Shown: positions 1-18,300 of the stretch, one piece after another
How the letters are laid out: every line of letters starts with the position of its first letter
Numbering within the stretch: the first letter of the stretch is position 1
Source: a virus
Lineage: Duplodnaviria; Caudoviricetes
Length of the DNA stretch: 64,000 bases
IMG/VR virus record: IMGVR_UViG_3300028591_000130
Location: 1 to 64,000 of that record
Strand: one strand, 5' to 3'
The notes under the pieces: generated by a model
Told to the model about the DNA's origin: nothing
The model's input: only the letters and a program-made list of their open reading frames with translations
The model's database searches: none
Translations under genes and position numbers: made by a program

Positions 1-1728
1 AACAAAGACTCTCAGAAAACTATTAACGCTGCTGTTTTTGTACAAGGCGAGTCAGTTAATAAACTTATGATGGACAGTGGTGACGCTGTAGAAAGAAAAG
101 GCGATAAAAGCTCTGCGGCTACACTGTCACAGTTGTCTTCGGTGCAACAAGCCATAGGTCTTGTGTCAGAAATCATAGGACACGCTGATATTCCTATTAT
201 TTCTGATCAATGGTTAAGAGTAAGATCACCGTTAGAGAGTTATCTTGCGGAACAGGTTTACGGTACACCTTACCAAAGCTGGGCGCACCCCATTAATACC
301 TTCTTGTATCCTGCTCTTGAGAGATCGATCTACGAACGTTCCATTTTTTCGTCAATGTTCTCTCACGTGGTAGAAATGGAAAAAACACCTGAGATTAACG
401 TACAGATAGGTAACTTACCACGTCTTAAGATAGGCAGCAAACAGATTACAAGAGGACCAAGACAACTTCTTTATATGACGTCGATTTTGGCTAATCGTAA
501 CGTTTTAGTAGGTCACGCGATAGCTAATATGATCGACGCCAATAACTCTAAGCTTGCTGTTCCGATATCTCACGCTCTTGACGTTGCAACAGGTGCTGCC
601 CATATTATGATAGGCGGTAAGTCATATTTCAGCAGTATGACTCTCGGTGCTTACTTCGGATGGGAAGCTGCTCGTATTAATGAAGTAACAGACAAGAAAA
701 CTAAGGGTAAGTATATGGCTGCAGGTGCTCTTATAGCTGCAGGATTCAGAGCACTTAAACATATCACAACAGGCCGTGACTGGGTTCCGGATCGTGTTCT
801 TGAAGCTCGAGAGATGGAAGATTACTGGGACCGTCTCACTTTTATCAAGTACCAAGGTCTTTATCACGAAGCAGCAAGACGAGCCCTTGACGAAGAAGGC
901 GTTGATATCCAAAGAGTCTTGGAAAATACTGACGAAAAAGATCAAGCAAGAAAAGCAATGTTGCGACACCTAAAAAGTATCAAAAAGGCTCTTGGTGAAG
1001 CTTACGGCGGCAAAACTAACGCTATGAAGGATTACCTGAGTAAGCTTGTTAACCGTAGGATATCAGAACTCGTTCCTGTAGAAAGTATGGTAGAAGGCGG
1101 TAAGTATACCCAAAGTGCCATTATCTACAAGAAAGCTGCTGAAGCTACAATGTATGGTCTCAAAAAAGGCGCGTCATGGTCTTCTATTATATCGGCACTA
1201 CCTACCAATGACAGAGAATACTTTATGGAGTTTGTGTCAGAAACTGATCCTGACAAGAAGAAAGAGATCTTGTCTATAGTATCACCTGCCCTTAGAAGAG
1301 CCCTACAAATGTCATGGGGCCTGCCTACAGAACAAAGAGAAACTAACGAACAGTTCTTTCAACACCATTATCTTCCTGACAGTAACTGGGCAGGTTGGCG
1401 CCCTGAAGTTGATATCGCTGACGTTGAGGTTAAAACTATAGATAACGAAGGTATGAATCTTTCTGACTTTGGCTTTTACGAAAGCAGCCTAAGAGAACCT
1501 GAAGTTATGATAGCGTCACCTTTGCCTTATAAAATGACTAACAAAGATCTTAACATTAGCAGTGAACTTAAAAGCTTGCTCAAAGGTAAAGGATTAAAAG
1601 ACGTCAAAGTTAACGTTACGGAAAACAACACAATGGGGCCTACAGAAATAATAGCTGATATCGGAATATGGTCAGGTATTCTTGATCAACAAAGAAAGGT
1701 AGAAGACAATATACGTTCTTGGATTTGA
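1..1728 (+). CDS. C-terminal part of a large virion-associated protein (5'-truncated), starting with the end of an SNase/thermonuclease-like domain
   Basis: The frame is open from base 1. NKDSQKTINAAVFVQGESVNKLMMDSGDA matches the C-terminal SNase pattern (D..gR.lA.V.v.g..vN..Lv..GlA). Gly/Ala hydrophobic stretches follow. It lies in the structural module. Confidence 0.6.
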   Translation, partial: NKDSQKTINAAVFVQGESVNKLMMDSGDAVERKGDKSSAATLSQLSSVQQAIGLVSEIIGHADIPIISDQWLRVRSPLESYLAEQVYGTPYQSWAHPINTFLYPALERSIYERSIFSSMFSHVVEMEKTPEINVQIGNLPRLKIGSKQITRGPRQLLYMTSILANRNVLVGHAIANMIDANNSKLAVPISHALDVATGAAHIMIGGKSYFSSMTLGAYFGWEAARINEVTDKKTKGKYMAAGALIAAGFRALKHITTGRDWVPDRVLEAREMEDYWDRLTFIKYQGLYHEAARRALDEEGVDIQRVLENTDEKDQARKAMLRHLKSIKKALGEAYGGKTNAMKDYLSKLVNRRISELVPVESMVEGGKYTQSAIIYKKAAEATMYGLKKGASWSSIISALPTNDREYFMEFVSETDPDKKKEILSIVSPALRRALQMSWGLPTEQRETNEQFFQHHYLPDSNWAGWRPEVDIADVEVKTIDNEGMNLSDFGFYESSLREPEVMIASPLPYKMTNKDLNISSELKSLLKGKGLKDVKVNVTENNTMGPTEIIADIGIWSGILDQQRKVEDNIRSWI

Positions 1729-1795: not shown

Positions 1796-3766
1796 ATGGC
1801 AACAGAAAAGCTGCAATTTCAAACAGAAACCAAACGGCTTCTCGATCTTGTTATTAACTCTATCTATACTAACAAAGAAATCTTCTTAAGAGAGTTGATA
1901 TCTAACGCAAGTGATGCCCTTGATAAACTGCGTATTGAGGCGTTAACAAACAAAGATCTTATTAGTGACGACTACGAGCCCGAAATCTTTGTTCTCATAG
2001 ACAAAGAAAAAGGAACTATAACTGTAACAGATAACGGTATTGGTATGACTCGTGACGAAGTTATTAACAATATAGGGACTATCGCCAAAAGTGGCACAAG
2101 TGACTTTCTCGACAAGATCCGTGGATCGTCTGACAGTGTTGCGCAGGAATTAATAGGACAGTTTGGTGTAGGTTTTTATTCTGCGTTTATCGTAGCTGAT
2201 AAGGTTGAACTCGTAACCTGCAAAGCGGGCACTGATCAAGGAGTAAAATGGGTATCTGAAGGTACAGGAGAATATGAGATCGAAGATTGTGAACAGCACG
2301 TTAACGGGACTGCTATTACCTTATACGTTAAGGAAGAATTTAAAGACAATCCCAACGATGAACTGCTGTTTCTTAACGAGTATATTATCCAAAGGCTTAT
2401 CAAGAAGTATTCCGACTTTATTCGATATCCCATAAAGATGTACTTTGAGAAAGTACAGAAGAAAGATCCTGAAGACGAAGAGTCAGAAGAAGAGACTATT
2501 ACCGAGATTAAAACCGTTAACTCTATGAAGCCCTTGTGGATGAGAAACAAAGATGAGATTACTCAAGAAGAGTACAGTAACTTCTTAGGTGCACAGTTTA
2601 GAGGCGGTAATAATCCCCTTGACGTTATTCACGTTAAGGCAGAAGGTACGGTAGAGTATACAGCCCTTCTTTTTATTCCCCGTTATGCACCTGCTAACCT
2701 GTTCAGCAGTGACTATGAAGCAGGATTGCAACTTTTCTCAAGGCACGTTATGGTTATGAAAAAGTGCAAAGATATCTTACCTGACTGGTTACGTTTTATG
2801 CAAGGTTTGGTTGACTCTATTGATCTTCCCCTTAATATTTCAAGAGAAACCTTACAACACAGCAAAGAAGTACAGATCATAAGTAAAGCACTTGAAAAGA
2901 ATATTCTTAAACATTTTGCTAAAATGTTAAAAGAAGATCGCAGCAAGTATGAAGAGTTTTGGTCTGAGTTTGGCAAGTCACTTAAACTTAGTATTTACGT
3001 TAGCGGTTATAACCCTACTCTGCATGAAAAGCTTAAGGAACTGTTTATGTTCCATACGTCAAAAGAAGGTAACGCTCTTTCTACTCTTGCAGAATATGTA
3101 GAGAGAATGCCTGAATATCAAAAAAAGATTTACGTAGTATCGGGTAAGAATCTTAGTGACGTAGAACAAGTTCCCCAAATGGAACTCTTAAAGGATCGCG
3201 GCTTAGAAGTCATTTACCTTGTTGACTCGATAGACGAGTTTACGATACGTCTGCTTAACAGCTACAAAGACAAAGAGTTTCAGTTCATTACGGCAGAAGA
3301 CTTTGATCTTGGTGACGCTGAGGCACAGAAAGAGAAAAACAAGATAGAAGATACAGCCAAAAATTACAAGGAACTTCTCAGGGACGTCAAAGACATTTTA
3401 GGTAATGGTGTTTATGACGTCAGGCTGACGTCTAATCTTAAGAGTAAAGCGATATGTCTTGTAGCCGGTGCAGGGTCACCGTCTCTTTCTATGGAAAAGG
3501 CTTTTGAAAGTCTGGGTAATCACAACGTTAAGTCGGTACAAATTCTTGAATTTAATCCTAACCATAAGGTCTTTGATAAGCTCAAAGAGTTGTATCAAAA
3601 GGGAAAAGACGACGTTACGTTTAGGGATTTTTGCAAGGTGCTTTACTCTCTTGCACTTTTAACAGAGAACGTTATGCCTGATAATCCCAGTGAGATATCA
3701 GGAAAAATAGTTGAGTTTATCGTTGATTCGGCAGAATACCCCCAGGTAAGTTTGGAGAATGACTAA
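1796..3766 (+). CDS. htpG: Molecular chaperone HtpG (Hsp90), full length
   Basis: GHKL and Hsp90 motifs are intact: FLRELISNASDA, DNGIGM, GTIAKSGT, IGQFGVGFYSAF, LPLNISRETLQ and C-terminal LEFNPNH. Confidence 0.97.
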   Translation: MATEKLQFQTETKRLLDLVINSIYTNKEIFLRELISNASDALDKLRIEALTNKDLISDDYEPEIFVLIDKEKGTITVTDNGIGMTRDEVINNIGTIAKSGTSDFLDKIRGSSDSVAQELIGQFGVGFYSAFIVADKVELVTCKAGTDQGVKWVSEGTGEYEIEDCEQHVNGTAITLYVKEEFKDNPNDELLFLNEYIIQRLIKKYSDFIRYPIKMYFEKVQKKDPEDEESEEETITEIKTVNSMKPLWMRNKDEITQEEYSNFLGAQFRGGNNPLDVIHVKAEGTVEYTALLFIPRYAPANLFSSDYEAGLQLFSRHVMVMKKCKDILPDWLRFMQGLVDSIDLPLNISRETLQHSKEVQIISKALEKNILKHFAKMLKEDRSKYEEFWSEFGKSLKLSIYVSGYNPTLHEKLKELFMFHTSKEGNALSTLAEYVERMPEYQKKIYVVSGKNLSDVEQVPQMELLKDRGLEVIYLVDSIDEFTIRLLNSYKDKEFQFITAEDFDLGDAEAQKEKNKIEDTAKNYKELLRDVKDILGNGVYDVRLTSNLKSKAICLVAGAGSPSLSMEKAFESLGNHNVKSVQILEFNPNHKVFDKLKELYQKGKDDVTFRDFCKVLYSLALLTENVMPDNPSEISGKIVEFIVDSAEYPQVSLEND

Positions 3767-3939: not shown

Positions 3940-6900
3940 ATGGCGGCCACACCCGTTAACATTGTCGATAACGTATACCAAGCTGACAATGCCAGTGTTA
4001 TAGACCTTGGTGACGTATTACAAGACGATTCTTGGTATCAGCACCTTGATCCCGAGACTCAAGCTTATCTGTTACGTAATGTCATACAGTCAGAGAACGG
4101 ATCTGTTATTAATCTCGGTACAGCTGTTCTGAACAAGGCAGGTATCCAACGTGTCCTGGATAACACAGAACAAACCATTAAGGCTCTGGTTGCAAAAGAA
4201 GAAACACAAACTTACGAGGTTAAGAGAAAGAAAGAGAAGTTTAAACATAATCCCCATATTAGAGAAGGATACAAGAAGCTCGCGACACACGACTTCTTCA
4301 GCAAACTGACAAGCTATATTAGCGAAGACAATGAACTTTTTAAAAACACAAACAAGCCTGTAGAGATACCTTACGAGAATATACAAGGTTTTCAAATTCA
4401 CCAGACTACGAACCAGACCATACAGGCGTTAGCTAATATTGAAAAGCAAGAAGGTATGGTTGTAGGTTTTGACTTTGAAAGTACAGGAGGCGTTAAGCTG
4501 GGTGAAAAACAGATACCGAGAAAACTAACCGAGTTTACCTTTGTTAAAAGGAATATTTATGACGAATCTGATATTCCTGAAATTTTTAGTTCTATTGTTG
4601 GTTCAAGCGAAGAAGACGATCAGGAATATGAAGATATCATAAACAAAATTGAACGTGGACAAGAATTATCTTACGAAGAAAGAGTTACAGCAACGCGTTT
4701 GGCAAAAATAGGTGCGTCGTCACAACTTGACGGCGCTATTGCTTGGAATTCTACTGAAGCTCAACAATATGGTATTTTTACCTTTAATAAGTTTGTCGGT
4801 GAAAACGAAGTTGCTCTCAGAGATACACGAATGATGCGTAGAGGCAAGGACGTACAACGCAAGATCGGAGAAATCCAAAGAAGTTTACCGTTACAAGATA
4901 TCGAACTTGATCACAAAAAGTTTTCAGTTAGAGGTTGGGAAAAAAAGCTGTTAGAAGGTGTTGACGCCGTACTGCACGGAGGCAAAGGGAAAACTGCTCT
5001 TACAGCTGTAGGCCATAACACAAGAACATTTGATATCTCACTTCTAAACAGTCTTATGACTAACGGACAACTCTCTGAAGGCGCCCAAGAAGCAATGCGG
5101 TATCTCTTTAGAGACAAAAATGACAGTCAACAAAAATCAACAACAGCAAAAACTCTTAAAGATAAGGTTGATAAACAACTTAAAGAATTAAGTGATACAC
5201 TTAACAATGAAGATATCAGTAAGACTATACAAGATTATCACACAGAAGTAGATCGTCTTGTGACACAAGGAATTGAGGCAAAAGAAAGTGCAGACGTACA
5301 ACAATATGCACAGTACTTTCTTAACGTACAACAACAAAGAACACAACTTGAAAATGAACTACAACAGAGAACTACAGATTATAATAGCGCTGAACAAAGA
5401 TATCAAAATCTTAAAAACTCAGGTGTTGGCGATGACAGCGAAGAACTTAAAAAAGCTGCCTTTGAACGTGACGAAAAAAGAATCGCACGAGATAGCGTAA
5501 CTCGCCAGATAAAGTCACTGCAACAAGAAGTATTTAGTAAGAGCAGTGAGATATCATTTATCAATGACGCCATTACACATGAGAGAAACGTAATAGCACA
5601 ACAAACAAGAGCAGAGTTAAACAGCTACCAACAACAAAATAAGACACCGGAAGAAATAGCTGCTTTGCGAGAGCAACAAACACAAAAAGAAAGAGCTCTT
5701 ATTAATAGCTGGACAGTTTTTGATAACGCTACAAATGAAATGCGAAAAGTACAAGACAGAGAATACGAACAACAAGTTGATAACGTAAGTCTAAGCATAG
5801 AGAGAGATATACAAGCTACAGAAAATATGAACAAAGGTATTGAGGACCAACAAAAGACATTTCGAGATATCATTAAGTTTAACGAAGATGAAATTCGATC
5901 AAAAGGCTATGATCCGCAACAACGTCCTGACACAATTGCAGACGACGCTTTAAAAAGTGCTTACGATAACTTAGAAACCAGTAACGAAGCGTTACAGGCA
6001 AGTAAAGAACAGTTACAACAAAATAAGCTGGAGATAGACAGTAAAACAAAGTTACAAGATGAGTTGAAAAACACTTCAGATTACAAACAAAAGGCAGTCT
6101 TAATAGAAAGGCATAATCTTCAACGTCTTATCAACGCAGATAATAAAGTTATAACACAAGCAGAAAACTTTCTAACAAATGATAACGTCCAAGATAACTA
6201 TAAACAACAGTATGGCGCGGAAAGCTACAAACGTAAAACTAAACAAGAAGAGAGACGAAAACAAGAAGCACAAAACAGGATAGCTAATTATAAACAACGT
6301 ATAGACGCCTTAGACCAAGGTGCCTTACCTGAGCTTCATACAAAGATCAGTGACAGAAGAGATATTGTTACTAATCTTGCAAAACAACACACACAGTTAC
6401 CAAAGACTTTGGCAGACCAGATTAAAAGTATAACGACAAAAGGAATCGAAGATCTAATTAGCGGTTATTTTCAAGAAACGGTTAATAGTTTTCGTAAGCT
6501 TGAAAGAAAAGACTTCACTACAGATGAAGCTTTTGCTAAATTTCAAAACAGATTTGAAACCATAGACAATAGAATCAAGCAGGCTTCTCAAGGTGAAGAT
6601 ATCATTTACGAGACAAGACAAAGTATAGACGATATGATATCTGAAACATTATCTGATGATTCTGTTATTAATCAAGCGAGCCGTAAAGATATAAATGAAG
6701 CTGCAGTGGATTGGGAAGCAGTTACAGAAGAATACGACAAAATTATTGACGCTAGAGAACAAGGCAATGCAAAAGTTAAAAGTATACAAACAAAGTTACG
6801 CCAGCTGACTGCACAAGGTGACGTTATTGGTATGCCTGACGCTACATTGTTCAGAGATGAGTTTGGTAACGCGTCATTTAAGTATCACTTGGATACTTTG

Positions 6901-9900
6901 GCTGTGTTTAGGCGTTTTATGCCTGAAGATTTTTACGACGAAAGTGATATCGATCAAATGGGTCGTATGAATCTTACGTCAGGACAGCAAGAAGCTATAG
7001 TAAGACGTATGTCTGCAGCTGTAGATCCACAAACAGGTAAACGTAACTGGTCTATGTCTGTTTACGACGATCCCCGTAACGCAGGCGCAGCTCACGCTGC
7101 AACTACGGACACCTTATATAATCTCGAGTATGTTCTTAAAAGGGGTATGCTTGTTGAAACGTCGCCGCTAAGACAGGCGTTATCTTCTTTACAAGAACAA
7201 TCTGATATCGTGTTAAGAAATGACGGCTCTGAACTTTTTCTTGCAACGTCAAGGATAGATCATGAAGCTTACAGACTGATGACTTTTGCCAAGGATCCTT
7301 TAACAGAAACTTTCAGGTTCCCCGATAAGTATGCCGTAAGTTCTAAAGACGTTGAAAATAAAGTTCCAGGCAAGGTTCAAACAGAACTTGTAGGATCTCA
7401 AGGGATCCAGAAAGGTGTTACCTATCGCGTTAAAAGATTGTTTGAAGCTGCTACAGAAAAAGAATTTCACGATATTATGAAAGATATGTATCCTGATACT
7501 GATATCAGTAAACTAACTGTACTTGAGCTTGAAGCTTACGCGCCTAAACCTGATCCAAGGGGTTTGTCTGTCAGGTTAAGAACCCCTGTTTATTACGTAG
7601 GTACAAGACAAGACATAGCTAACGCTATGATGGATCATACCTTTTATATCGGTGACTTACAACGTAACGGTGAGATAGATACAATAAAGGTATCAGATTA
7701 TACAAAAAAACAGCTTGCAAAGCATACCTTTTCACCTGACGGAGTTATAAAGACAACGCCTTTTTCAGCACCTGATATCGTAAGAGAAGGTGTAAGGCGT
7801 GCAGAACAAGAAGCTGCTGCTCGTAAGATCAGGTATCATGACTATAAGGCAGATAAAAAGCTTCTGGATTTTTTGGAGTACGAAGAAGACAAACTTAAGG
7901 AGTTAACCAGCCAAACTACACAAGGTTCTCCTTCTGAAAGAGAAGCACAGATTAAGCTGTATCAAAGACTTTGGGAAAACTCTACGATCATAGCACAGCG
8001 GATCTTTAGAGGAGAAGCTGTTGATATTAACAGTGAAATGTATAAAAACAGTTATCAAAACTTCTTTGGCTTTTATAGTTTTGATGACGCACAAAAAGGT
8101 CACCTATTACCTGAGACACTGTCAGGACAACTTGGTCGCATTGACTGGGCACGCCAAAACAAAGCGACCATACAAGCTGCAGTTACTAAGGCAGAAGAAC
8201 TCGCAGGACCTAAGCAAACTAATCGTGCTGTAGTAAGCTATTACTACAGAAAGCTGATGCAAGGTATAGAAGACTACATAGAACAACAAGAACAAACAAA
8301 GAACAGCAGACGTTTGGGATGGGAACTTGACGGTCTTTACGGTTACGAATTTGAAAACCGTTTTGAGATTAACCTAAAGGGATTTGGTGATATCACAAAG
8401 GATACTATAGTTACTCTTAACCTTAACTCTGAACCTCATACGATATCACACAACATAATGAATGCCCTTGCACAAAATGGTTTTAGAGATAACTATAAAC
8501 CTGAAGAGAGAACATTGTTTTTAAAACAAGTACAAAGATTTTTGTACAATACAAGACAGATAGGGTACTTTACTGACGGTCTGTCAAAACGTAGTAGAGA
8601 GACGTGGATTCAAGAAGTTAGGGACGGAACACGACAGTATCCTGACGCCTTCATACAAGAATTTAATTCTCAGTATCCCTTAGATGAACAAGAAAGACCT
8701 ATGAACCCCTTTAGGATTATGGAACAAGATACCGAAGTTACTGCTGCTCACAAGTTGGTACAAACGCTTAAAAACAAAAGAGCAGTAAATCCTTTCTCCG
8801 GACATATTACAGGGACTTATCGTCATACGACGTCAGGATGGACAGAGACTTTTACAAATGCCGATGAAACAAAAAAGGTTTTAGATACTATTGGTAAAAC
8901 TATTCCTACAGTTACAGGTGTTTTTTCTGAAAAAGAAAAAGATATCGAAACTAAGGTTAACGAAGTTATTGATGACGTCGTTGACAACGTTTTAATGCTC
9001 AAAGACGACAGAATATCAAATGAAGTTTTAGAAGGTGCAGGTTATACAGCTCAAGAGATCACAACTCTCAGATCAGTCAGAAGTCTTCACAAGCAAGGTT
9101 TACAGCGTTACACAAAACAGTTATTTGGTCTGATAGCGCACATGGGCGGTACGATAACTTGGGACTCACATTCAAGATCGGTTATGGCTAAGATAGGTGA
9201 CAAGATGATCGATCTTGCCATACCTACAGAGCGCTTTATCGGTGGACAGTTACAATATCAGGTAGGCGGCAGTTTGCTTTCAATGCCGGTAGGTATCTTC
9301 GATCTTAAGGACGGTTACGGTGAAAGAACCGAACTTAAGATGACAAGCTTGATAGAAAAAGCCATTGCTACTCAAGAAGGCCTTATCAAGTGGCACAAGG
9401 AACAATTTGCCGAAGGTGAAGGCGACGTTTTGTATCACCTTAGTAAAACTTTAACCGGCCTTGGCACAACCTTACGAACTGCACCCATAGTTAAGGATGT
9501 AGGCATAACGTCACGCAGTAACCAGTTTAGGGTAGAGTATAAAGATATCTTTAAAAATATTCCTGCTTTGCTTGGAAGTAACGTGCCTGATATCGACACT
9601 TGGAACACAGACGAAGGCTATAAGCAAGTTATAAGAGACTTGGCAACCGGCGTACAAGAGTATGAGCCTGATCACCCTGCTTACTCTCACTTCACTGCGC
9701 TTCAGGCTAATCTTGACAGACTGCTCATTACGACAAGAGAAGCAGGAATTGTAACAAAAGCTGACTACAATAATATTTTACAAAGTTTTATTCCTAACGT
9801 TAAGATGGCAGATCACCTTGCAGGTATAGCAACTTACCATGGTGACTGGTATAACCAGTTTGTTCAACAAAGAAGAAACCCCGCTAACGTAGAAGACGCT

Positions 9901-12900
9901 GCACAACTTAACGCCAAAAAGATATCGGACTATATTCGGCAAGCAGAAGATTTGCCTGACGAGTTTGGCGCACTACAAGATATCTACATAGGCAAGGGAT
10001 CTACTAACTTGTCAGTGTGGAAACAAGCTACTTACGGCAGTGTTAAACAGCAAGACGGTACTTACAGCAAGCGTCTTGATACCCATATTCAAGCTAACGT
10101 ACTGCATACGTCACCCATTGGTCTTAACGCACTTATAACGGCTAATCTTGCAGATACTGCAACAAAACTGACTACGGGGCAAAAATCGTCAATGACTAAC
10201 GAAGCCTTCTTGGCAAGCACGGGATTATTAACAACTGCTATGCCTGACGAAGGAGTAATGTTTGTTCACGGACAAGTTTTTGACAGAGCGTTTAACGAAC
10301 GCGATACCTTACAAAAGATTAACGTTAAAAAGGTACTTGATATCAACGAAGGTCACTTGCTTGACCTGCCGCAAAAAGTTGCTGCGATGTTCTCTTACGA
10401 TGAACAGAAAGGCTTCTCTTACGGTAAGGGTACCTTTATCCAAGACAGTGATATTTTTGCTCACATAGCAGGATACAGTGGTGTACCTTACGGCAAGAAA
10501 GCCAAGTATGAAGGTATTTTTAAGCTTGGTGTTTTTGATCTTGCTACAGGGCATCTTGTAGAAGAAGATACAATAACTCAGATCATAAAAGAGAGTAAAG
10601 ACCTGATTGACAGAGATAACGCTACTACAGCAGAGCGTTCACAAAGAATCGTTGATCTGTTAAGCCAAAAATATAACGTTTCTTACTATATCCAAACAGA
10701 GAGAGCCAATCCTTTGTTTAAGGCTTCAGAAATGGCTGAGAAGGGCATGACCCGTGCCCTTATTCTTAACACAGGTGAAGCTGACACAAGAGTAAGAAAC
10801 GTAATGCAGAATCTTGGCTTCTACGGAGGTAACTACACTGCGCAAGAAGCTGTTTGGGAAGAAGAACAAGGCTCGCCTAACAAACGTCTTGTACAAAAAC
10901 AGGTTACCCGTACTCTTGGTAAGGTTGACGCCCTTGATATCAAAATGATTGACGCACTCAAGGAAGGCGACCTTGGTGCCTTTGGTGTTGCAGCTAAAGG
11001 CAGATATCAGTTACTGCACGGTGAAAAACTTACAGATGATGCATTGTTTAAGACGATAGGACAAGAATTTGGTATTGACACTACAACAACAGAAGGAAAG
11101 AGTGAAGCCGCAAAAACACTAAGAGAAGCTATTATCCAAGAACGTTACGCACCCAGTAAGGTAATGGCTACTGTTTTACAACAAGCTGGTATCTACGGTA
11201 AAGACGAGTCATTTCACTTTATCTCTAATCATATAGCTAACGTTATTAAACACGGTGATATCAGTAATTATCGTTACCTGATAGACGAATGGGTCTTTAG
11301 AGAAAAAAAAGGAACTCTCAAAGGTGGTACTTCTGCCGCTGAACTCGTTAAGAAATGGTTACTCAGAGATGAAAAAGGACAAGAATACAAAGGTGATATC
11401 AATCTTGAAGATGCTACTCTTATTCTGTCAAGGCAACCAGGTAGTGTTAATATTAATCTTCAAGAGTACAGACAAGCATTGTTAGAAAGCGGCATTGTAG
11501 ATCTTACAAAGAAAGGAAAACAGTTATCTGCCGCTGATCAACAAGCAGCTGCACAAGCTTACATAGATACAGGAAGTCTTGAAAGCGGTGCTTACGGCTT
11601 TAGCAACCAAACCACAAGAGACTTTATGGTTAAAGACGGAATTTCTCAGATGATGAAAGGTTCTGAAGGCGGTTCCGGTAATTTCTCTTTCCTTTATGAG
11701 AAGTCACGTGGTGAGTTTACGAAGATGCGCCATTACTGGGATTGGCAAAAAGAAAGTGATGACGCTGTTCGTTTTAACCAACGTGCCATAACCGCACTTA
11801 GCAATGTCAGAGCAGGACTAAAGAATAAACTTGATATCGAAAATTTCTACAAGGAAAGAGAAAAAGTTTACGGTAAAGACAGTGTTAAGGCAGGTAACAC
11901 CAAGATATATGATACCTACATTAAGGGTCTTGAGAACGGTGAAATAGTACCTACAGCAGCTATCGATCAGATCTATCGTAATATGTTTAACAGGCAAGGT
12001 GGCGGTGAAAAGCTTGCAGGCTTTATCAAGGATACAGGACAAGGTCTTGAATGGAGTATTGATCAACCTGCAGTCGAAAGATTTGTTAAGCGTTATAACG
12101 TAGGTAATGGTGACGTCCAAAAAGGCATTAACATTATGACGTCAATTCTTGGCAGAATGCACCAAGACGGCATAGGTGACAGAAGCATAACTACAATTAA
12201 CGAAGCCGGTGCGTTAAATCTTTGGAAAGCTTTTTCTGCTACTGCAGCTAACGCCATTAATGAAGGTACTATCGATGTGTCTACGAGTCCAGCTGAAGCC
12301 GAACATCTTGGCTTTAAAACTATCAAACTTGAAGATCTTATGGCCGGTCGTTTTGGTGCCGGTAACTTTGAAGAGTCACTATATGGTCATAACTGGCTTA
12401 TTGATCTTGGAGATCATAGTGCTTTTGGTAACAGTTTATGGCGTAACGCAGGTCCCGGTCATAAGAGCGGAAGATATATTGCGATATCAGCAAATCACGT
12501 TGAAGAACCGGGTGCTTATCGTGAAGCTATTGTTGATAAACCTCAAGCACAGGTAGCAGGCTTACAAGATGCTATCGACAGATATCTTCTCGCGTCAAGT
12601 GAAGGAGCAACAGACAGCGAAAGACAAAAACTTTTCGGTAAGATAACAGATAAGGTACAGAAAATCAGAATGACACAACATGACGTCTGGGCAGGTAAAA
12701 AAGGTATCATGGATGAAGCTACCCGTGCCTGGATGCATGACGCACAGCGCGCTACTGCAAAAGGTATGATGCTACTTGGTACTGAAAATGTAGAGGCCGC
12801 ACTTGGTCATGCACACCAGATTGATAACTTAAAAGAATTGATATCTCTTGCAAAAGAAAGAGAAGCTGATATCAGCAAACTTAGTATTAACGGATTTAAC

Positions 12901-15279
12901 CTTGTAGAAGAAGCAAGCAAAGGTAAACTCGCGCATCAGTTTAGCTACAGTATTCTGTCTCTTGAGAGAATGAATAAGATTTATGATACCGGTTTTGCTG
13001 AGATAGGCGATACTCTTATTAACGCAGGTATAGACAAAGGCACTGTTGACGGCCTGATATCACAAATGTCAGGTATAACAAAAGAGATAGCACAAACGGA
13101 AGGTGTTGAAGGAATATCGGCTCGTGAACCGTTACAGTATTACGGTTCTGTTACCCAAAGAAAAGTTTTTTTCAACTCTCTTGCAAGCGGTAATGAAGCT
13201 ATCGGTGACTTTGTGAGTGCGCAAATGCGCAAGGAAGACTATGACTCTGACGCTGTAACTAACGCTTTACACAAGGAACAAGCCGAACTTGCCATTACTC
13301 AGAATGGTGTTACCAAAAGAGTTAATATCGAAGTTGACAGTGCAATGTTGTCTGCTCTTAATAAGATGAAGCCTGCTGAAGGCATACAAATGTCGGTTAA
13401 GCTTCTTGACGAAGGTGCAGCCAAACGTTTTGAGAATTACAAGGCTTCACAATTCTTTCTTGGTGCAGGTGAAGCACAAAGATATCGCACGGTGCAAGAT
13501 TTCTCAAGCCAAGATTTCAAGTTTGACTTTAACTCTTTGTCTGCTGAACACTTAGCTGAAAAGATTGCACCTTATGACTCTCAGTTGTCTCGTGACGTCT
13601 TGTCTACAGTTCAAATGACTCACGGACAGAGAGTAGACTTTGGCAGTGATGATCGATTTAAAGGATTCATGAAACAATTCTATCAAGATATGGTTAAAGA
13701 AGCTTCTCTCGATCAAAAAACCTTTGGTAGAGACTTTATCTTTGCAAGCGGCGAAACACAACGGATAAGAATGCTTGAATATCTTGAGAAGAACGCTGCA
13801 GCAGCAGGTGCTTTGCTGGGCGGAGGCGATAATCAAGATCTTGACTTTGCCTATGACGTGCTAAAGTTTTCCATGCATGACGCAAGCTTGGTAGGTGACA
13901 TGGTTTCAAGCGCAGGTAGAGTGCCTACAGGCAGGATAAACAGAATCACCCAAAATGTTTATGATATTATGCATGAGGTATTGCATAACGAAGATGCAGG
14001 ACAATACTTTGAAAAAGACATAGGCTTGCTGACGAATCAAATAGGTTTGGTTAACCTTGCTGTGCAAGAAGGATTCTTGTCACCTAAGAACATAGGCGCT
14101 CAAGCAGGTACTACGATATCAGGTGAAACTTTAAGAACGCAACTCATTCCTCGTCTTGAAAGTGCGTTTACTGCTGCTCTCAGTGTGAAAGATAACGCTA
14201 CTGACGAGCAAAGGGCTGTTATTAAAAAGGATCTGTCCGATATTTTACAAGAAATAGTCATACCGAGAGCAAGTAACGAACTTGCAAGGGATCCTGCGTT
14301 ACCTACTTTGCTTGAACTTTTACAAGACGAGAATAAGGCAAAGACCTACGGTGTCAACTATAAAGCACTTGTAAAAGATACTCTTGGCAGTTTACCTGAA
14401 GACGATCCACGAGCTTTGACACAAACAGCTAAAAAAGCTATAGGCACTTACGTTGACTTTTTGGTAGACAATGTAGGGTGGCACGGTAACAAGAGAAATC
14501 TTTTCTCATTTAGCGTATCTCACGGTTCAGGCAATCCAAAGAATCTGCCTACTATTTTGCCAAAAGAAAGTAACCAAGCCGCTGTCCAGCTTAGGAACGT
14601 CATGGGTAACGTTATGTCTGACCTTGGTGTTAATGACGCATTGCTTTATACCGGCGGTAACGTAGGTTTTAACAGAAAAGTATCTGCAGCACAAGATCTT
14701 GATAACTTTGCAGATCGTACTGCGAAACAAAAACCCCTGCTTGATATTTCTGAGGTACCGAAAAAAAGAAATTCATTGCTTAGAACTAAACTTAGAGCAA
14801 TGAAAACGGGAGGCATAACAGGCACTCTTGTTAATATAGCAGGAGGACTTATGATATCAGGCTTTGCCAACAATCCGTCACAAAAGCAAGAGCCGCCCAG
14901 ATATCAACAAGGCGGAAGACAACTTCCTACAGCAGAAGGTTCAGCTTTTGGTAACGCACCTATTCCTGCACAGAGTTTGCCTGAACCTGCTACAGGGTTA
15001 GCAGCAGGCGGTGCAGCAGCTTACGCGTCACAGTATCCAATCTCTTTTGCTGACAGTAATCTTAACGTTATGAGAGGCGGTCCTGCTAAGGCTTACACTA
15101 TTAATATATCGGGAGTCAGTCCTAGAGGACAACAGGCAGCAGTAGAAGCTATCCAAAGTTCCATAGGAGGTCCTGTGCCGCAAAATTCTTCCATTAACGT
15201 TGCTATCAACAATAACTATAAAGATACTTTGTCACAAGCACAGGTAGGACGTATGGTTCAAACTGCTATGGGTTTTTGA
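3940..15279 (+). CDS. Giant 3779-aa protein: putative single-chain two-barrel DNA-dependent RNA polymerase (beta+beta'-like, probably virion-packaged) with an N-terminal DEDDh 3'-5' exonuclease domain
   Basis: Exonuclease motifs: GFDFESTG, GHNTRTFD, HLDTL, HAATTD. Collinear RNAP-like motifs: PDEGVMFV, KGTFIQDSDIF, FKASEMAEKG, GKKG..DAQR, REP, EDYDSD, GRVPTGRINR, QEGFLSPK. Confidence 0.72.
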   Translation: MAATPVNIVDNVYQADNASVIDLGDVLQDDSWYQHLDPETQAYLLRNVIQSENGSVINLGTAVLNKAGIQRVLDNTEQTIKALVAKEETQTYEVKRKKEKFKHNPHIREGYKKLATHDFFSKLTSYISEDNELFKNTNKPVEIPYENIQGFQIHQTTNQTIQALANIEKQEGMVVGFDFESTGGVKLGEKQIPRKLTEFTFVKRNIYDESDIPEIFSSIVGSSEEDDQEYEDIINKIERGQELSYEERVTATRLAKIGASSQLDGAIAWNSTEAQQYGIFTFNKFVGENEVALRDTRMMRRGKDVQRKIGEIQRSLPLQDIELDHKKFSVRGWEKKLLEGVDAVLHGGKGKTALTAVGHNTRTFDISLLNSLMTNGQLSEGAQEAMRYLFRDKNDSQQKSTTAKTLKDKVDKQLKELSDTLNNEDISKTIQDYHTEVDRLVTQGIEAKESADVQQYAQYFLNVQQQRTQLENELQQRTTDYNSAEQRYQNLKNSGVGDDSEELKKAAFERDEKRIARDSVTRQIKSLQQEVFSKSSEISFINDAITHERNVIAQQTRAELNSYQQQNKTPEEIAALREQQTQKERALINSWTVFDNATNEMRKVQDREYEQQVDNVSLSIERDIQATENMNKGIEDQQKTFRDIIKFNEDEIRSKGYDPQQRPDTIADDALKSAYDNLETSNEALQASKEQLQQNKLEIDSKTKLQDELKNTSDYKQKAVLIERHNLQRLINADNKVITQAENFLTNDNVQDNYKQQYGAESYKRKTKQEERRKQEAQNRIANYKQRIDALDQGALPELHTKISDRRDIVTNLAKQHTQLPKTLADQIKSITTKGIEDLISGYFQETVNSFRKLERKDFTTDEAFAKFQNRFETIDNRIKQASQGEDIIYETRQSIDDMISETLSDDSVINQASRKDINEAAVDWEAVTEEYDKIIDAREQGNAKVKSIQTKLRQLTAQGDVIGMPDATLFRDEFGNASFKYHLDTLAVFRRFMPEDFYDESDIDQMGRMNLTSGQQEAIVRRMSAAVDPQTGKRNWSMSVYDDPRNAGAAHAATTDTLYNLEYVLKRGMLVETSPLRQALSSLQEQSDIVLRNDGSELFLATSRIDHEAYRLMTFAKDPLTETFRFPDKYAVSSKDVENKVPGKVQTELVGSQGIQKGVTYRVKRLFEAATEKEFHDIMKDMYPDTDISKLTVLELEAYAPKPDPRGLSVRLRTPVYYVGTRQDIANAMMDHTFYIGDLQRNGEIDTIKVSDYTKKQLAKHTFSPDGVIKTTPFSAPDIVREGVRRAEQEAAARKIRYHDYKADKKLLDFLEYEEDKLKELTSQTTQGSPSEREAQIKLYQRLWENSTIIAQRIFRGEAVDINSEMYKNSYQNFFGFYSFDDAQKGHLLPETLSGQLGRIDWARQNKATIQAAVTKAEELAGPKQTNRAVVSYYYRKLMQGIEDYIEQQEQTKNSRRLGWELDGLYGYEFENRFEINLKGFGDITKDTIVTLNLNSEPHTISHNIMNALAQNGFRDNYKPEERTLFLKQVQRFLYNTRQIGYFTDGLSKRSRETWIQEVRDGTRQYPDAFIQEFNSQYPLDEQERPMNPFRIMEQDTEVTAAHKLVQTLKNKRAVNPFSGHITGTYRHTTSGWTETFTNADETKKVLDTIGKTIPTVTGVFSEKEKDIETKVNEVIDDVVDNVLMLKDDRISNEVLEGAGYTAQEITTLRSVRSLHKQGLQRYTKQLFGLIAHMGGTITWDSHSRSVMAKIGDKMIDLAIPTERFIGGQLQYQVGGSLLSMPVGIFDLKDGYGERTELKMTSLIEKAIATQEGLIKWHKEQFAEGEGDVLYHLSKTLTGLGTTLRTAPIVKDVGITSRSNQFRVEYKDIFKNIPALLGSNVPDIDTWNTDEGYKQVIRDLATGVQEYEPDHPAYSHFTALQANLDRLLITTREAGIVTKADYNNILQSFIPNVKMADHLAGIATYHGDWYNQFVQQRRNPANVEDAAQLNAKKISDYIRQAEDLPDEFGALQDIYIGKGSTNLSVWKQATYGSVKQQDGTYSKRLDTHIQANVLHTSPIGLNALITANLADTATKLTTGQKSSMTNEAFLASTGLLTTAMPDEGVMFVHGQVFDRAFNERDTLQKINVKKVLDINEGHLLDLPQKVAAMFSYDEQKGFSYGKGTFIQDSDIFAHIAGYSGVPYGKKAKYEGIFKLGVFDLATGHLVEEDTITQIIKESKDLIDRDNATTAERSQRIVDLLSQKYNVSYYIQTERANPLFKASEMAEKGMTRALILNTGEADTRVRNVMQNLGFYGGNYTAQEAVWEEEQGSPNKRLVQKQVTRTLGKVDALDIKMIDALKEGDLGAFGVAAKGRYQLLHGEKLTDDALFKTIGQEFGIDTTTTEGKSEAAKTLREAIIQERYAPSKVMATVLQQAGIYGKDESFHFISNHIANVIKHGDISNYRYLIDEWVFREKKGTLKGGTSAAELVKKWLLRDEKGQEYKGDINLEDATLILSRQPGSVNINLQEYRQALLESGIVDLTKKGKQLSAADQQAAAQAYIDTGSLESGAYGFSNQTTRDFMVKDGISQMMKGSEGGSGNFSFLYEKSRGEFTKMRHYWDWQKESDDAVRFNQRAITALSNVRAGLKNKLDIENFYKEREKVYGKDSVKAGNTKIYDTYIKGLENGEIVPTAAIDQIYRNMFNRQGGGEKLAGFIKDTGQGLEWSIDQPAVERFVKRYNVGNGDVQKGINIMTSILGRMHQDGIGDRSITTINEAGALNLWKAFSATAANAINEGTIDVSTSPAEAEHLGFKTIKLEDLMAGRFGAGNFEESLYGHNWLIDLGDHSAFGNSLWRNAGPGHKSGRYIAISANHVEEPGAYREAIVDKPQAQVAGLQDAIDRYLLASSEGATDSERQKLFGKITDKVQKIRMTQHDVWAGKKGIMDEATRAWMHDAQRATAKGMMLLGTENVEAALGHAHQIDNLKELISLAKEREADISKLSINGFNLVEEASKGKLAHQFSYSILSLERMNKIYDTGFAEIGDTLINAGIDKGTVDGLISQMSGITKEIAQTEGVEGISAREPLQYYGSVTQRKVFFNSLASGNEAIGDFVSAQMRKEDYDSDAVTNALHKEQAELAITQNGVTKRVNIEVDSAMLSALNKMKPAEGIQMSVKLLDEGAAKRFENYKASQFFLGAGEAQRYRTVQDFSSQDFKFDFNSLSAEHLAEKIAPYDSQLSRDVLSTVQMTHGQRVDFGSDDRFKGFMKQFYQDMVKEASLDQKTFGRDFIFASGETQRIRMLEYLEKNAAAAGALLGGGDNQDLDFAYDVLKFSMHDASLVGDMVSSAGRVPTGRINRITQNVYDIMHEVLHNEDAGQYFEKDIGLLTNQIGLVNLAVQEGFLSPKNIGAQAGTTISGETLRTQLIPRLESAFTAALSVKDNATDEQRAVIKKDLSDILQEIVIPRASNELARDPALPTLLELLQDENKAKTYGVNYKALVKDTLGSLPEDDPRALTQTAKKAIGTYVDFLVDNVGWHGNKRNLFSFSVSHGSGNPKNLPTILPKESNQAAVQLRNVMGNVMSDLGVNDALLYTGGNVGFNRKVSAAQDLDNFADRTAKQKPLLDISEVPKKRNSLLRTKLRAMKTGGITGTLVNIAGGLMISGFANNPSQKQEPPRYQQGGRQLPTAEGSAFGNAPIPAQSLPEPATGLAAGGAAAYASQYPISFADSNLNVMRGGPAKAYTINISGVSPRGQQAAVEAIQSSIGGPVPQNSSINVAINNNYKDTLSQAQVGRMVQTAMGF

Positions 15280-15360: not shown

Positions 15361-18300
15361 ATGGCTACCCAAACAACAGGCATTGGTACAAGTCAAGGTG
15401 CACAAACTGTTGTGTCAATAGAACAAGTGATATCACGAATAACTAACGGTACAGCAACTTCTAATGACGAATATACTTACAGACAGTGGCTACAGCAACA
15501 AGTTAAAGAAGGTAAGGCTGATTATGACAAAGATAAAGAGATTTACACTTTTAAAGATTCTGACTGGTCTGTGTCATATTCTAAGGATACTTATCAAAGA
15601 TTTATTAAAGGTGAAAAGTTAAGTGACGCACTCAAAGAACAGGTAGACAGTGGCGCAAAGCCTATGACTGCTGACGAATGCTATCAAGTTCTTACTGGCG
15701 GTACGTCAAATCGTTCCTTACTGGATAAAGCCTTGTCCTATTACGCAATGCACTATGACGAAGTTAACGCTGTTGACAACAATTCTCTAAGAGCACAAAA
15801 AGGCGATAGCGTTAAAGACATAGTTATGAAAGACGAATATATGAGATTACGGCTGGCTAAGCTTGCACAGATAGCCATATCTTACAATACAGGAATAAAT
15901 AAAATTAAAGCTACAGATCTTTACTCTAATTCTTTTCTAAAAGATTTTGGTACATTCGAAGATTCACAAAATGTCAGTGACGTTGATAGGACAGAAGAAA
16001 AGACCGCTAACGACATTGCTAAGGAAGTTCTTGGTAACTCTACTCTTAATCTGTCAGATCAAACTGACTTTAAACTTCCTGACATGGGCGATTACTACCT
16101 TGGTAACGTTGATACTACTTACCTTGATCTGATATCAGAACGTTACGAAAATAAAAAGGATGCTCACGCTGCTGCCTTTTACGCCGAAACTGCACCTGAG
16201 AAAACCTTGGGTTATAATGAAGATACCGATATCTATTTCTTAAAAGCTAAGGTCAATTTATCAGATAATGATATCAAAGATGGTTTTATGGGTACTGATT
16301 TTATAACTTTATTTGTAGATCAAGTCAGTGCAGCAGAAGGTGACGCTACTGCTGCACTGGAAAAACTGTCTGCCGATATTGCCAACAAAACTGCCGGTTA
16401 TCCTGCTATAGCAGGATCTTCTGCCGGTAATATGTTCGAGTTGCAATTAGTAGGCATATCGTCGCCCAAACCTGCAAGGTGGGCTACGGAAACTAACGTT
16501 GAAAAGAGTAGCATATCTTACAAGGGAATAAAAAAAAGCGACACTATTGAAACCTTCTTGTCAAACTCCTTTGTGATATCATTTCCCGATATGCTGGCTT
16601 TGCTTGAACAAAAAGGTAATGACAGTACTAATGACTTTTGTTTTATTTACGTTAACGGTAAATGGCACCAAGCTGAATTGATATCAGAGACTAACGGCAC
16701 GTGTGATTTCAGGTGGCTTATTGATCCCGGTTCTGAAACGGTCAGTACGATTAAACAAAAAGGAACAGAAAGTGTTGATAAAAGTTCTGACGTTATAGCT
16801 AATATGGCACTTGCACAAGGTATCTCTACTTTACGGGAATTAATAAACAGTGCAGGAGGTACAATTTATATTAGATTTGAAGGGGCCGGACTTAAGGAAG
16901 GTGGCAGTGTCAACTTTCCTGCAGCAATGTCCGGAGCACTCTCTGATATCACTGCCAAGTCACAACTATTAAGTATGACCGCTAACTCTTCTGATATCAC
17001 TGCAAGTGGCCTTAACCGTATTCACACAACCAGTAACAGAAGGTATTTAGGCGAAGTATTTATAAAAATGGACTCTCAGTATGGTAACGTTTTTATTAAT
17101 CTTGCCAAGTATATCTTAGGTACCATTGAAGATAACCCTGACGCTAACAAACTTTATCGTGACGAAACCGGCGAATACAAAATGACTGACTTCTACAAAA
17201 TGTCTGACGTTTATGAAGGCAAAAATAATCATAACTTTGTAACCCGAGATTACGATATTGATTCCAAGGTTTACGCTGACGCCTTCTTCGAGACTCTTGA
17301 TATCTTAGATGATCGCAGGGAAATTCAACAAGCGATTCACGGTGAAAATTGGGATAATCTTCACGAGTACAACGTTACCATAGGTGACGTTACCTTCTTT
17401 GTACCGCCTGTCAATATAAGAATGCAGACTCATACCCAGTCAGAACGTATGCAACTTTTGAGAGCAGCAGGTTCTGCTACAAAGACGGATCAACACATGA
17501 CCCGCGTTATTGCTATGGATATCTTCTTTAACGAAGAACGCGGTATTAACGGATATCAGTATACTACTACTTTGAATGACTCAGAAAAGACACCCGTCGT
17601 CTATTCTCTTAACGGGTTGAGAGCTTTGGTATCACAGTTTAAGTTTACACCGTTTCTTCCGATAACTAATACCTTTATCAACGAAACTCTCGGTATAGAA
17701 GCAGTAACTGTATCGTCACTGCAGATAACGTCAGTACACAACTATCCTAAGCTCATTCACGCGACCATAACAATGCTTGAGTTTGACTGGACTGTTTATA
17801 TGCCTGATATCTCACAGCTTAAGATAACCGCAGCTTATGGTGCCGCTATTTTGCAAGAAAAAAACTGGGAAGATCTTCAAGCTGCAGCTAACGCTGCTAC
17901 TGACGAAAACGGCAATGTTGTAACTAATGACGCTATCGAAGAAGCAGCGTCAGACCTTAAAAGAAACAGTAAGTATATTAACTGGTTTGAAAAGACTATT
18001 AACTGGAAGACATTTCGTTACTACTATCAAAGAGCTATAAGAAGAGGCGATCTTCTTAAAAATCTGCCCGTTGACTTTAACTCAGAAGAATATATTTATT
18101 ACACAAGTGGCGGTTTAACCTGTCTTGTTCCTATGGAATTTACCGAACCCAGGATCAAATTCTACATGGCTAATGAGGACTACCTTAAGGAACTGCTTAA
18201 GGCACGTTTTGAATATCTTAGCAAGACAGGTACTAAGGGACAGGAAATATCATTTTCTCCGGATCAGATCAAGTTCTTGGAAGCTCTTGACGAACTTAGA

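Follow-up and report, generated by a model that had tools for sequence, protein, structure and literature searches.

Only a few phage lineages are known to bring an RNA polymerase (RNAP) of their own into the cell. In Thermus phage P23-45, gp96 is a two-barrel RNAP of the virion that is fused to the tape measure (Chaban et al., 2024, PMC10770324), and the crAss-like phage protein phi14:2 gp66, a two-barrel enzyme in a single chain, has the non-canonical motif DFDID and no known fold over most of its mass; the words "exonuclease" and "nuclease" are absent from the report on P23-45 gp96 (PMC10770324), as is "nuclease" from the preprint on gp66. In Bacillus phage 0305phi8-36, the 2,537-amino-acid (aa) gp146 was identified as a virion protein by mass spectrometry and is a hypothetical tape measure (PMC2147016). 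The present analysis concerns a window of 64 kb, the start of a linear virus record of 104,760 bp (IMGVR_UViG_3300028591_000130; CheckV completeness, 45%), and within it a giant open reading frame (ORF) whose 3,779-aa product is here termed P0001. The nearest precedent of P0001 is P23-45 gp96. On balance, P0001 is read here as an injected tail protein that joins a 3'-5' exonuclease to a two-barrel polymerase, and the nuclease may act on the nucleic acid of the polymerase.

The exonuclease domain and its insert

Structure prediction indicates that aa 140-392 and aa 976-1091 of P0001 together make up a single 3'-5' exonuclease domain of the DnaQ-like (DEDDh) kind, in which no catalytic residue is missing. 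A word-indexed search returned three relatives of the protein, P0002 (97%), P0003 (66%, 3,789 aa) and P0004 (40%, 3,190 aa), and a profile made of the P0004 domain and both halves of the P0001 and P0003 domains, run against 1.84 billion representatives, gave 44 matches, 38 of them at E <= 1e-10. The matched proteins are nearly all 2,550-3,779 aa long, with the domain at aa ~60-610 and mostly at ~130-500. Across about 45 such giant proteins (2,550-3,789 aa) the exonuclease motifs are the most conserved positions, and the catalytic residues are invariant. When 16 diverse members were aligned (18-43% identity to the first sequence), 37 of about 2,900 columns were invariant, and seven of these are the ExoI D and E, the ExoII N and D, the D of DTL and the ExoIII H and D. 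From the sequence, D178, E180, D365 and D1057 would make up a complete two-metal site, with H1052 as the general base and with N360 and D985 in addition. The ExoIII spacing, H-x4-D, is that of the DEDDh ("h") subtype and not the Y-x3-D type, and in the Plex9.1 alignment given below ExoIII falls on the A-H ... D motif. The D-x-E of ExoI lies at the end of strand beta1 (strand 32-40 of the homologue model described below), and the ExoII pattern (H/Y)-N-x(3,4)-D is present, on strand 229-232 and helix 235-247 of that model. The N-terminal half begins with strands beta1-beta3 and ends with the ExoII strand and helix; between beta3 and ExoII sits a helical and beta-hairpin sub-domain of about 130 aa (roughly aa 223-350) that is found in all of the giant-protein family.

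The fold was modelled on the insert-free homologue P0004 (aa 135-520), for which AlphaFold2 with a 42-row alignment gave a mean predicted local distance difference test score (pLDDT) of 90.5 and a predicted template modelling score (pTM) of 0.90; with only five sequences the same domain reached a pLDDT of 45, which was unusable. In a wide search with VIA-align, which is independent of Foldseek and covered 48,161 chains, all of the top 50 structures were DEDD/DnaQ-fold exonucleases or the exonuclease-like domains of polymerases. The closest were the PolC-type exonuclease (Z 12.2; 187 residues aligned, root-mean-square deviation 3.5) and Pol III epsilon (Z 11.9; 170 of 174 residues aligned, deviation 3.0), followed by ExoI (Z 11.6), 3'hExo (Z 11.5), the DinG exonuclease (Z 11.4) and Plex9.1 (Z 11.0), the Z-scores being tied within 1 unit, so that DNA-specific and RNA-specific relatives are not separated. 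Foldseek against the PDB placed TREX1 in nearly all of the top rows, from E = 2.3e-3 and at a probability of 1.00, with TM-scores that are modest because of the insertions in the domain. At the profile level, the family matched the TREX1 homologue Plex9.1 in the PDB (9mrd_A/9mrc_A; E = 0.0017) with ExoI, ExoII, DTL and ExoIII all in register. In the ESM-Atlas the nearest named clusters were RNase_T exonucleases at 0.90, which serves as a lead only. The best matches in BFVD were two long viral proteins without a named role, one of them auto-labelled "YprB ribonuclease H-like". Both entries, A0A7R7G2L5_1 and A0A8S5RKK9 (pieces of 1,257 and 1,009 aa), outscore every named exonuclease there (E = 1e-7 and 4e-6), and they are probably members or cousins of the giant-protein family that public databases leave functionally unnamed.

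In P0001 the domain is interrupted by 583 residues, placed in the loop between a helix and the DTL strand of the model and containing few Pro or Gly. The heptad periodicity of this segment stands at z = 5.9 against shuffled sequences (0.33 in a control region), it diverges faster than its flanks (51% versus 88-94% identity to P0003), and the full-length three-row profile A1, searched against the PDB, found weak coiled-coil proteins only, on the insert. P0004 lacks the segment and retains all four motifs. The insert is thus a coiled-coil-like, lineage-specific excursion in a surface loop of the exonuclease domain; at the same site, P0007 and P0052 carry shorter inserts (~120-130 aa), and P0001 and P0003 carry the 583-aa form. 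The loop before the DTL strand is a hot spot for insertions. Should the protein set tail length, the insert would lengthen it, and a coiled coil inside the loop of an enzyme domain offers a natural test of what the DEDDh fold tolerates. The two halves of the P0001 domain, submitted as separate chains each with its own alignment, were predicted to dock, with an interface score (ipSAE) of 0.85 as compared with 0.00 for the best of three controls; the ipSAE mark applied is reached by 58 of 80 solved complexes and by 2 of 110 mismatched pairs, and halves of one domain can pass this test through their likeness to solved DEDDh folds, which is the very likeness under test. Contact agreement between runs was at least 83% and the partner pLDDT at least 78. 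The predicted interface comprises aa 176-178 and 180 of ExoI, aa 353-362 with the ExoII strand, H359 and N360, aa 976-989 with D985, and aa 1048-1059 with H1052 and D1057.

An initial annotation of the window had placed an intact DEDDh exonuclease in the N-terminal part of P0001. Its residue numbers and nucleotide positions for the four motifs are exact, and the four acidic residues and the His of the DnaQ/PolC-exo family that it listed are all present and are invariant in the 16-member alignment. The domain itself is upheld by conservation, by the Plex9.1 profile match, by the fold of the insert-free homologue and by the docking of the halves, and these models also predict that the motifs assemble into one RNase-H-like site. 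That annotation had further proposed to fold the domain without its insertion and to compare it with the RNase_T/DnaQ profile; the first part held, in that the P0004 domain is predicted to fold as a DEDD exonuclease, and the second did not, as PF00929 (RNase_T) found nothing at E <= 10 in P0001 whole, its pieces, P0003, P0004 and 10 short members, nor at E <= 1 in 16 full-length members. Several further results of this kind count against the assignment. No Pfam exonuclease or RNAP family was recovered from any of the same proteins (the only faint Pfam signals being DNA_pol_A_exo1 at E = 0.16 and RNase_H_2 at E = 0.046), PHROGs gave no match on P0001, and PF00929 gave none in a six-frame search of the genome. 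Because the Pfam and PHROG models are silent, membership is carried by structure prediction, the motifs and one marginal profile match, and because it falls below the PF00929 threshold the domain is filed under the DnaQ-like superfamily rather than under that family. Shallower tools added little: the five-row profile A2 found no match in the PDB, and an underpowered hhalign comparison of the domain alignment with single sequences, with RNase HI as the negative control, aligned E. coli DnaQ on ExoI only (E = 0.034).

Table 1. Features of the giant ORF and of its neighbours, in nucleotide coordinates of the window
Feature	Position	Strand	Basis
Giant ORF, P0001	3940..15279	+	exonuclease, middle region, polymerase-like core, hydrophobic segment and conserved tail; homologues 2,550-3,789 aa
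Exonuclease domain, N half, aa 140-392	4357..5115	+	family HMM (hidden Markov model) match aa 140-396; AlphaFold2 model of homologue; 47% identity to P0004
ExoI GFDFESTG, aa 176-183 (D178, E180)	4465..4488	+	D and E invariant family-wide; at predicted interface between the halves
ExoII GHNTRTFD, aa 358-365 (H359, N360, D365)	5011..5034	+	D invariant; N at least 90% conserved
Helical insert rich in Q/E/D/K, aa 393-975 (583 aa)	5116..6864	+	alignment gap in P0004; heptad periodicity; weak lamin/keratin matches
Exonuclease domain, C half, aa 976-1091	6865..7212	+	family HMM match aa 971-1091; predicted docking on N half
HLDTL, aa 983-987 (D985)	6886..6900	+	D invariant; aligned with DTL of Plex9.1
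ExoIII HAATTD, aa 1052-1057 (H1052, D1057)	7093..7110	+	H and D invariant; at interface with ExoI residues
Candidate two-barrel polymerase core, aa ~2841-3130	12460..13329	+	68.5% identity to P0004 versus 39-62% in other segments; invariant K, P, D, D, D
GKKG, aa 2919-2922, candidate basic residues of beta-like barrel	12694..12705	+	K invariant in 16 diverse and in 34 members; inferred assignment
R3062-E-P3064, candidate for beta-prime N-R-A-P motif	13123..13131	+	register with R-N-P of phiKZ gp55; family alignment
DYDSD, aa 3100-3104, candidate metal-binding D-x-D-x-D	13237..13251	+	invariant Asp; aligned on NADFDGD of phiKZ gp55 and E. coli RpoC
Gly-rich, mildly hydrophobic segment GTLVNIAGGLMISGFANNP, aa 3627-3646	14818..14877	+	conserved GxAGG motif; counterparts in P0004, P0011 and P0044 exceed Kyte-Doolittle 1.5
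Family-conserved C-terminal tail (Y-x-I-N-I ... S-I-N ... M-N)	15037..15276	+	alignment consensus; 95% identity to P0003
C-terminal part of 0305phi8-36 gp145 homologue (virion protein)	1..1728	+	BLASTP E = 2e-49; full-length version in L002, E = 3e-46
Hsp90/HtpG-family gene	1796..3766	+	Pfam HSP90 E = 5.4e-117; between gp145-like and giant gene
3,179-aa gp147 homologue (baseplate hub with wall-degrading domains)	15361..24900	+	phrog_20474 E = 2.7e-160; tblastn to gp147 and Moorella/Bacillus phage relatives

The candidate polymerase core and the persistence of the fusion

The best conserved segment of P0001, aa 2841-3130, probably makes up the catalytic barrels of a two-barrel nucleotide polymerase that consists of one chain, as its GKKG, R-x-P and DYDSD motifs suggest (Table 1), and the activity of such a core would most likely be DNA-dependent RNA synthesis. 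In two-barrel polymerases D-x-D-x-D is preceded, at a distance of some 30-45 residues, by an invariant R-x-P (Ruprich-Robert and Thuriaux, 2010, PMC2919709), and the R, the P and the three Asp stand on a published list of eight invariant two-barrel RNAP residues. In P0001 the invariant Lys 2920 is followed about 140 residues on by R-x-P, and the first D of DYDSD comes 36 residues after the P; the same arrangement of R/K-x-P and, about 36 residues on, D-x-D-x-D is found in 45 of 45 full-length members, with DFDGD or DYDGD, the canonical forms, in some of them. Each of the three Asp is invariant across the 16 diverse members and P3064 is likewise invariant, R3062 being at least 90% conserved and replaced by K in P0015; a conserved D-L stands at aa 2822-2823 of P0001. 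When the family profile was searched against the PDB, the sole match other than exonucleases was the beta-prime barrel of phiKZ gp55 (7OGP_A), aligned in register with R-x-P on R-N-P and K-G-D-y-D-S-D-k on N-A-D-F-D-G-D-Q. However, this match has an E-value of 1.3 and a score of 9.4 bits, one invariant basic residue is seen where two-barrel enzymes should have two, with a spacing unlike that of known families, and neither hhalign of the alignment A4 nor hmmsearch gave a match to E. coli RpoB and RpoC; all of this weighs against a polymerase. A local HMM of the core, set against RpoC, aligned only at D-x-D-x-D and with a negative score.

The strongest alternative concerns the core itself, namely that the D-x-D-x-D region is no polymerase but an unrelated acidic metal site, and that P0001 serves as a tape measure or in ejection, with the exonuclease at its head. 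Such an outcome is regarded as unlikely, if a serious contender. Taken by itself D-x-D-x-D is short, no RNAP was matched significantly, the ESM-Atlas gave nothing informative for aa 2780-3250, and a six-frame search of the genome found no match to PF05183, a family of RNA-dependent RNA polymerases (RdRP). On the other hand, R/K-x-P and D-x-D-x-D are among the very few invariant residues of a 2,900-column alignment, the 36 residues from the P to the first D are near the 33 of E. coli beta-prime, and it is difficult to see the canonical DFDGD and DYDGD of some members, or an RNAP catalytic barrel in register as the only non-nuclease match in the PDB, as features of an unrelated metal site. The silence of the homology searches also speaks less clearly for this alternative than it may seem, as two-barrel RNAP families have little in common outside the D-x-D-x-D region (PMC10770324).

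Whatever the activity of the core, it has not been found apart from the exonuclease. When the search was started at the polymerase end (aa 2800-3250), every protein recovered had the exonuclease as well, and searches from both ends, within their length and word limits, found neither a free-standing exonuclease nor a polymerase-only form. Free-standing exonucleases were considered among the short matches (591-1,023 aa) and rejected for the three that were examined, P0025 and P0013 being giant genes split by frameshifts and P0043 running off the end of its contig. In two metagenomic relatives the giant gene is broken by frame changes, at L009:114-4889 (3>2>1) and L010:3001-6434 (1>3), with homology continuous across the breaks, which could be assembly errors, pseudogenes or programmed frameshifts. 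Among 50,697 phage records, tblastn with aa 1-1120 and aa 2021-3779 of P0001 found no match. The initial annotation had called the protein a putative RNAP that no characterised RNAP resembled in being joined to a DnaQ-like nuclease, and had asked whether homologues keep the fusion. Every full-length homologue keeps both motifs and fusion; the polymerase holds at the level of motifs (R/K-x-P and D-x-D-x-D in 45 of 45 members, and the phiKZ gp55 register) and falls short in the E-value of that one match. The claim of novelty agrees with full-text literature searches, which turned up no description of a DnaQ-like nuclease attached to a two-barrel RNAP or forming part of a protein from the tape-measure slot.

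A model of action and its alternatives

Taken together, these observations allow a model to be proposed in which P0001 is assembled into the tail of the virion, from which it departs before the DNA or together with it. Delivery by the tail is inferred by analogy, because of the position of the gene and the precedents of P23-45 gp96, crAss gp66 and the N4 virion RNAP (gp50), and enzymes delivered with the DNA would as a result act in the host as soon as infection begins. The exonuclease would remove nucleotides from free 3'-OH ends by DEDDh two-Mg2+ hydrolysis, and exonuclease and polymerase would share the same nucleic acid. In the preferred form of the model, at the end of the linear genome that enters the cell, the exonuclease would resect the 3'-ended strand, which may provide a single-stranded template for the polymerase; this form is favored because gp66 transcribes single-stranded DNA strongly in vitro. 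However, several points tell against it. Resection of the 3' end at the leading end exposes a template that is read towards the genome end, which helps only if early genes point that way. Further, about 1,750 residues lie between the two catalytic centers of P0001, and the giant protein might undergo cleavage.

If the core is a polymerase, the nuclease may nevertheless serve it differently, as an editor of transcripts that trims or proofreads the RNA 3' end or rescues backtracked complexes in the manner of Gre/TFIIS or nsp14 ExoN. Both catalytic centers do occur in one polypeptide in 45 of 45 full-length members, and DEDDh enzymes use RNA as readily as DNA, with 3'hExo, ERI2, RNase T, REXO2, ISG20, PARN and CAF1 among the neighbors. 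Minimal single-chain two-barrel RNAPs are without the cellular cleavage factors. Editing is considered improbable, however, as the domains are so far apart in the chain, fidelity is of little weight for a few early transcripts, the Z-scores do not tell RNA-specific from DNA-specific relatives, and no DNA-dependent RNAP with an appended proofreading exonuclease was found in the literature searched. Similarly improbable is a role independent of the polymerase, in which the exonuclease is an injected weapon or counter-defense that degrades host or competitor nucleic acids, or the linear oligonucleotides or DNA of a defense system, once the contents of the tail arrive; it was among the options put forward in the initial annotation. 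The predicted delivery with the DNA, from the tail-slot position, would suit the timing of action against immediate defenses, and DEDDh enzymes of immunity (TREX1, ISG20, Cap18 of CBASS and Cas2-DEDDh) are among the structural neighbors. But cyclic signals have no free 3' end to attack, a tape-measure-like protein is expected at few copies per virion, and a weapon of this kind would not account for the nuclease always accompanying the polymerase core in this family.

A further scenario, which carries somewhat less conviction than either of these, has both active sites serving one 3' end, such that the two-barrel core extends the 3'-OH and the DEDDh domain excises from it, as in a proofreading DNA polymerase. 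If true, P0001 would be the first two-barrel polymerase of a bacterial virus with a covalently attached editing nuclease, and its core may make DNA, or extend the DNA 3' end of the entering genome, and not only transcribe from promoters.

It is more doubtful still that the giant ORF is a polyprotein, from which the exonuclease is cleaved off to act, for example, as the proofreader of the phage DnaE or as a recombination nuclease, the fusion then ensuring co-expression or co-packaging. The genome fragment does encode a DnaE-like polymerase, no separate DnaQ-type proofreader was detected in its 105 kb, and cleavage of giant fused polyproteins of the virion is suggested by published work on crAss-like phages. 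However, the record holds 45% of the genome, so a DnaQ gene may lie elsewhere, the Pfam and PHROG scans found no protease domain or cleavage motif in P0001, and the location inside the tail gene block speaks against a role in replication. Lastly, that the four exonuclease motifs are a chance constellation or a catalytically dead relic, as the missing Pfam match and the interruption by 583 residues in P0001 might suggest, is very improbable in view of seven motif residues invariant across lineages down to ~20% identity, a confident and uniquely DEDD-like fold, and halves that are predicted to assemble.

Genomic setting and comparison with known systems

Homologues of gp145 and gp147 flank the giant gene, just as their counterparts flank gp146 in 0305phi8-36, and farther downstream are a gene for a transglycosylase protein and tail-fibre-like genes. 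P0001 is therefore referred to as a tape-measure-slot protein rather than a tape measure, because the gene position fits and homology to known tape measures was not found: neither P0001 nor the family profile has detectable similarity to gp146, and P0001 has no match to a tail family in PHROGs. This lack of similarity, together with the fact that the role of gp146 is itself only an assignment, detracts from the case for tail delivery, and a tape measure would not typically contain large folded enzyme domains. Only the last ~60 residues of the tape measure are reported to be conserved in the 0305phi8-36 lineage (PMC2147016). The sole alignment of the P0001 tail to gp146 is over G-Y-E-V-N-V, at a similar distance from the C-terminus, with an hhalign probability of 0.3%, which is not significant.

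Between the gp145-like gene and the giant gene, the window carries a full-length gene of the Hsp90 family that is also present in the phage encoding P0003 (L002, L003) and absent from that encoding P0004 (L001). It has matches in 38 of 50,697 phage records, several of them short unannotated fragments, and its product may act as a chaperone for giant proteins. What is specific to this window is the adjacent Hsp90 gene together with the 583-residue coiled-coil split of the nuclease domain. In the gp145-like genes of two related contigs (L001:4738-9903 and L002:2720-7936; 1,721-1,738 aa) a faint LAGLIDADG_3 match was seen, possibly the remnant of an intein or a homing endonuclease.

The phage is a distant relative of the 0305phi8-36/Moorella-phage group of large myoviruses. 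Its replication genes include a DnaE-type polymerase (34% identity to that of Moorella phage MTATph1), DnaB and RecJ; the DnaE-type (Pol III alpha-like) gene is at L005:4852-8229 (+), or 88,852-92,229 of the genome. An assignment to the crAss-like phages was considered and dropped, as the synteny of the tail module and the DnaE polymerase point to 0305phi8-36/Moorella-phage-like myoviruses. Elsewhere in the record, at L005:14900-16834 (-), or 98,900-100,834 of the genome, lies a gene for a reverse transcriptase of 644 aa whose C-terminus is HNH-like (phrog_1423, E = 1.7e-86; phrog_6050), which looks like a group II intron-type maturase within the phage genome. P0003, the closest full relative, is encoded on a contig of 344,407 bp (L002) and other members on contigs of 190-253 kb. 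Because the contigs of relatives reach 344 kb, the true genome is probably jumbo-sized and the record a fragment of it.

The giant-protein family is unrelated in sequence to the known carried RNAPs and occurs widely in metagenomes, its contigs being as long as 344 kb, and it suggests a second group of large contractile-tailed phages with a similar carried polymerase. To this it adds a strictly conserved 3'-5' exonuclease, a partner for which no described DNA-dependent RNA polymerase was found to have an equivalent. Were the nuclease to prepare the template or to edit the product, this would represent a new way of starting a phage infection and a new coupling of polymerase and nuclease on a two-barrel scaffold. 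The family also illustrates that a whole enzyme domain and a probable polymerase can escape Pfam and PHROGs in genes that are usually labelled hypothetical or tape measure.

Compared by description, P23-45 gp96 and P0001 are both giant proteins in the tape-measure slot with a D-x-D-x-D two-barrel signature and a membrane-type segment, and gp96 is proposed to transcribe the first genes during DNA entry, as is suggested for P0001. They differ in that gp96 belongs to a siphovirus and has its RNAP at the N-terminus (DFDGD at aa 779-783) along with a metallopeptidase domain, whereas P0001 has its polymerase-like core in the C-terminal third and a DEDDh exonuclease at the N-terminal end; no exonuclease is reported for gp96 (PMC10770324). 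The tail-module setting also differs from that of crAss-like phi14:2 gp66 and N4 gp50, which are likewise very large proteins but belong to podovirus-type virions, in which they are packaged to carry a polymerase into the host, and are not encoded in a tail tape-measure slot; further, N4 gp50 is a T7-like enzyme and not a two-barrel one, as the core of P0001 is a candidate to be. In 0305phi8-36, gp146 shares with P0001 the slot between the gp145 and gp147 homologues and a similar giant size (2,537 aa), and that phage has a separate YonO-like RNAP, orf99 (PMC2147016). Among nucleases, Pol III epsilon (1J53), the PolC exonuclease, ExoI, TREX1 and Plex9.1 (9MRC/9MRD) have in common with P0001 the RNase-H-like fold, the D-x-E of ExoI, the N-x4-D of ExoII, DTL and the H-x4-D of ExoIII. 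The P0001 domain is set apart from known DnaQ-like DEDDh exonucleases by 12-20% identity, by being PF00929-negative, by ~130 extra residues between beta3 and ExoII, by the 583-residue insert, and by being a covalent part of a 3,779-aa tail-module protein. Pairings of similar logic, in which a polymerase or translocase works with a 3'-5' exonuclease on one and the same strand, are described in the literature. Archaeal PolD combines a two-barrel DP2 with an Mre11-like DP1, indicating that a two-barrel core can work with a proofreader, although the fold of that nuclease differs from that of P0001; nidoviruses pair their RdRp with the nsp14 DEDDh ExoN, as P0001 may pair its two domains, but with an RNA-templated polymerase of palm fold; and S. 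aureus DinG has an N-terminal DEDDh domain that is a structural neighbor of the P0001-family domain (Z 11.4). All three are analogies of logic to P0001 and not homologues of the whole protein, and P23-45 gp96 stands as its closest counterpart.

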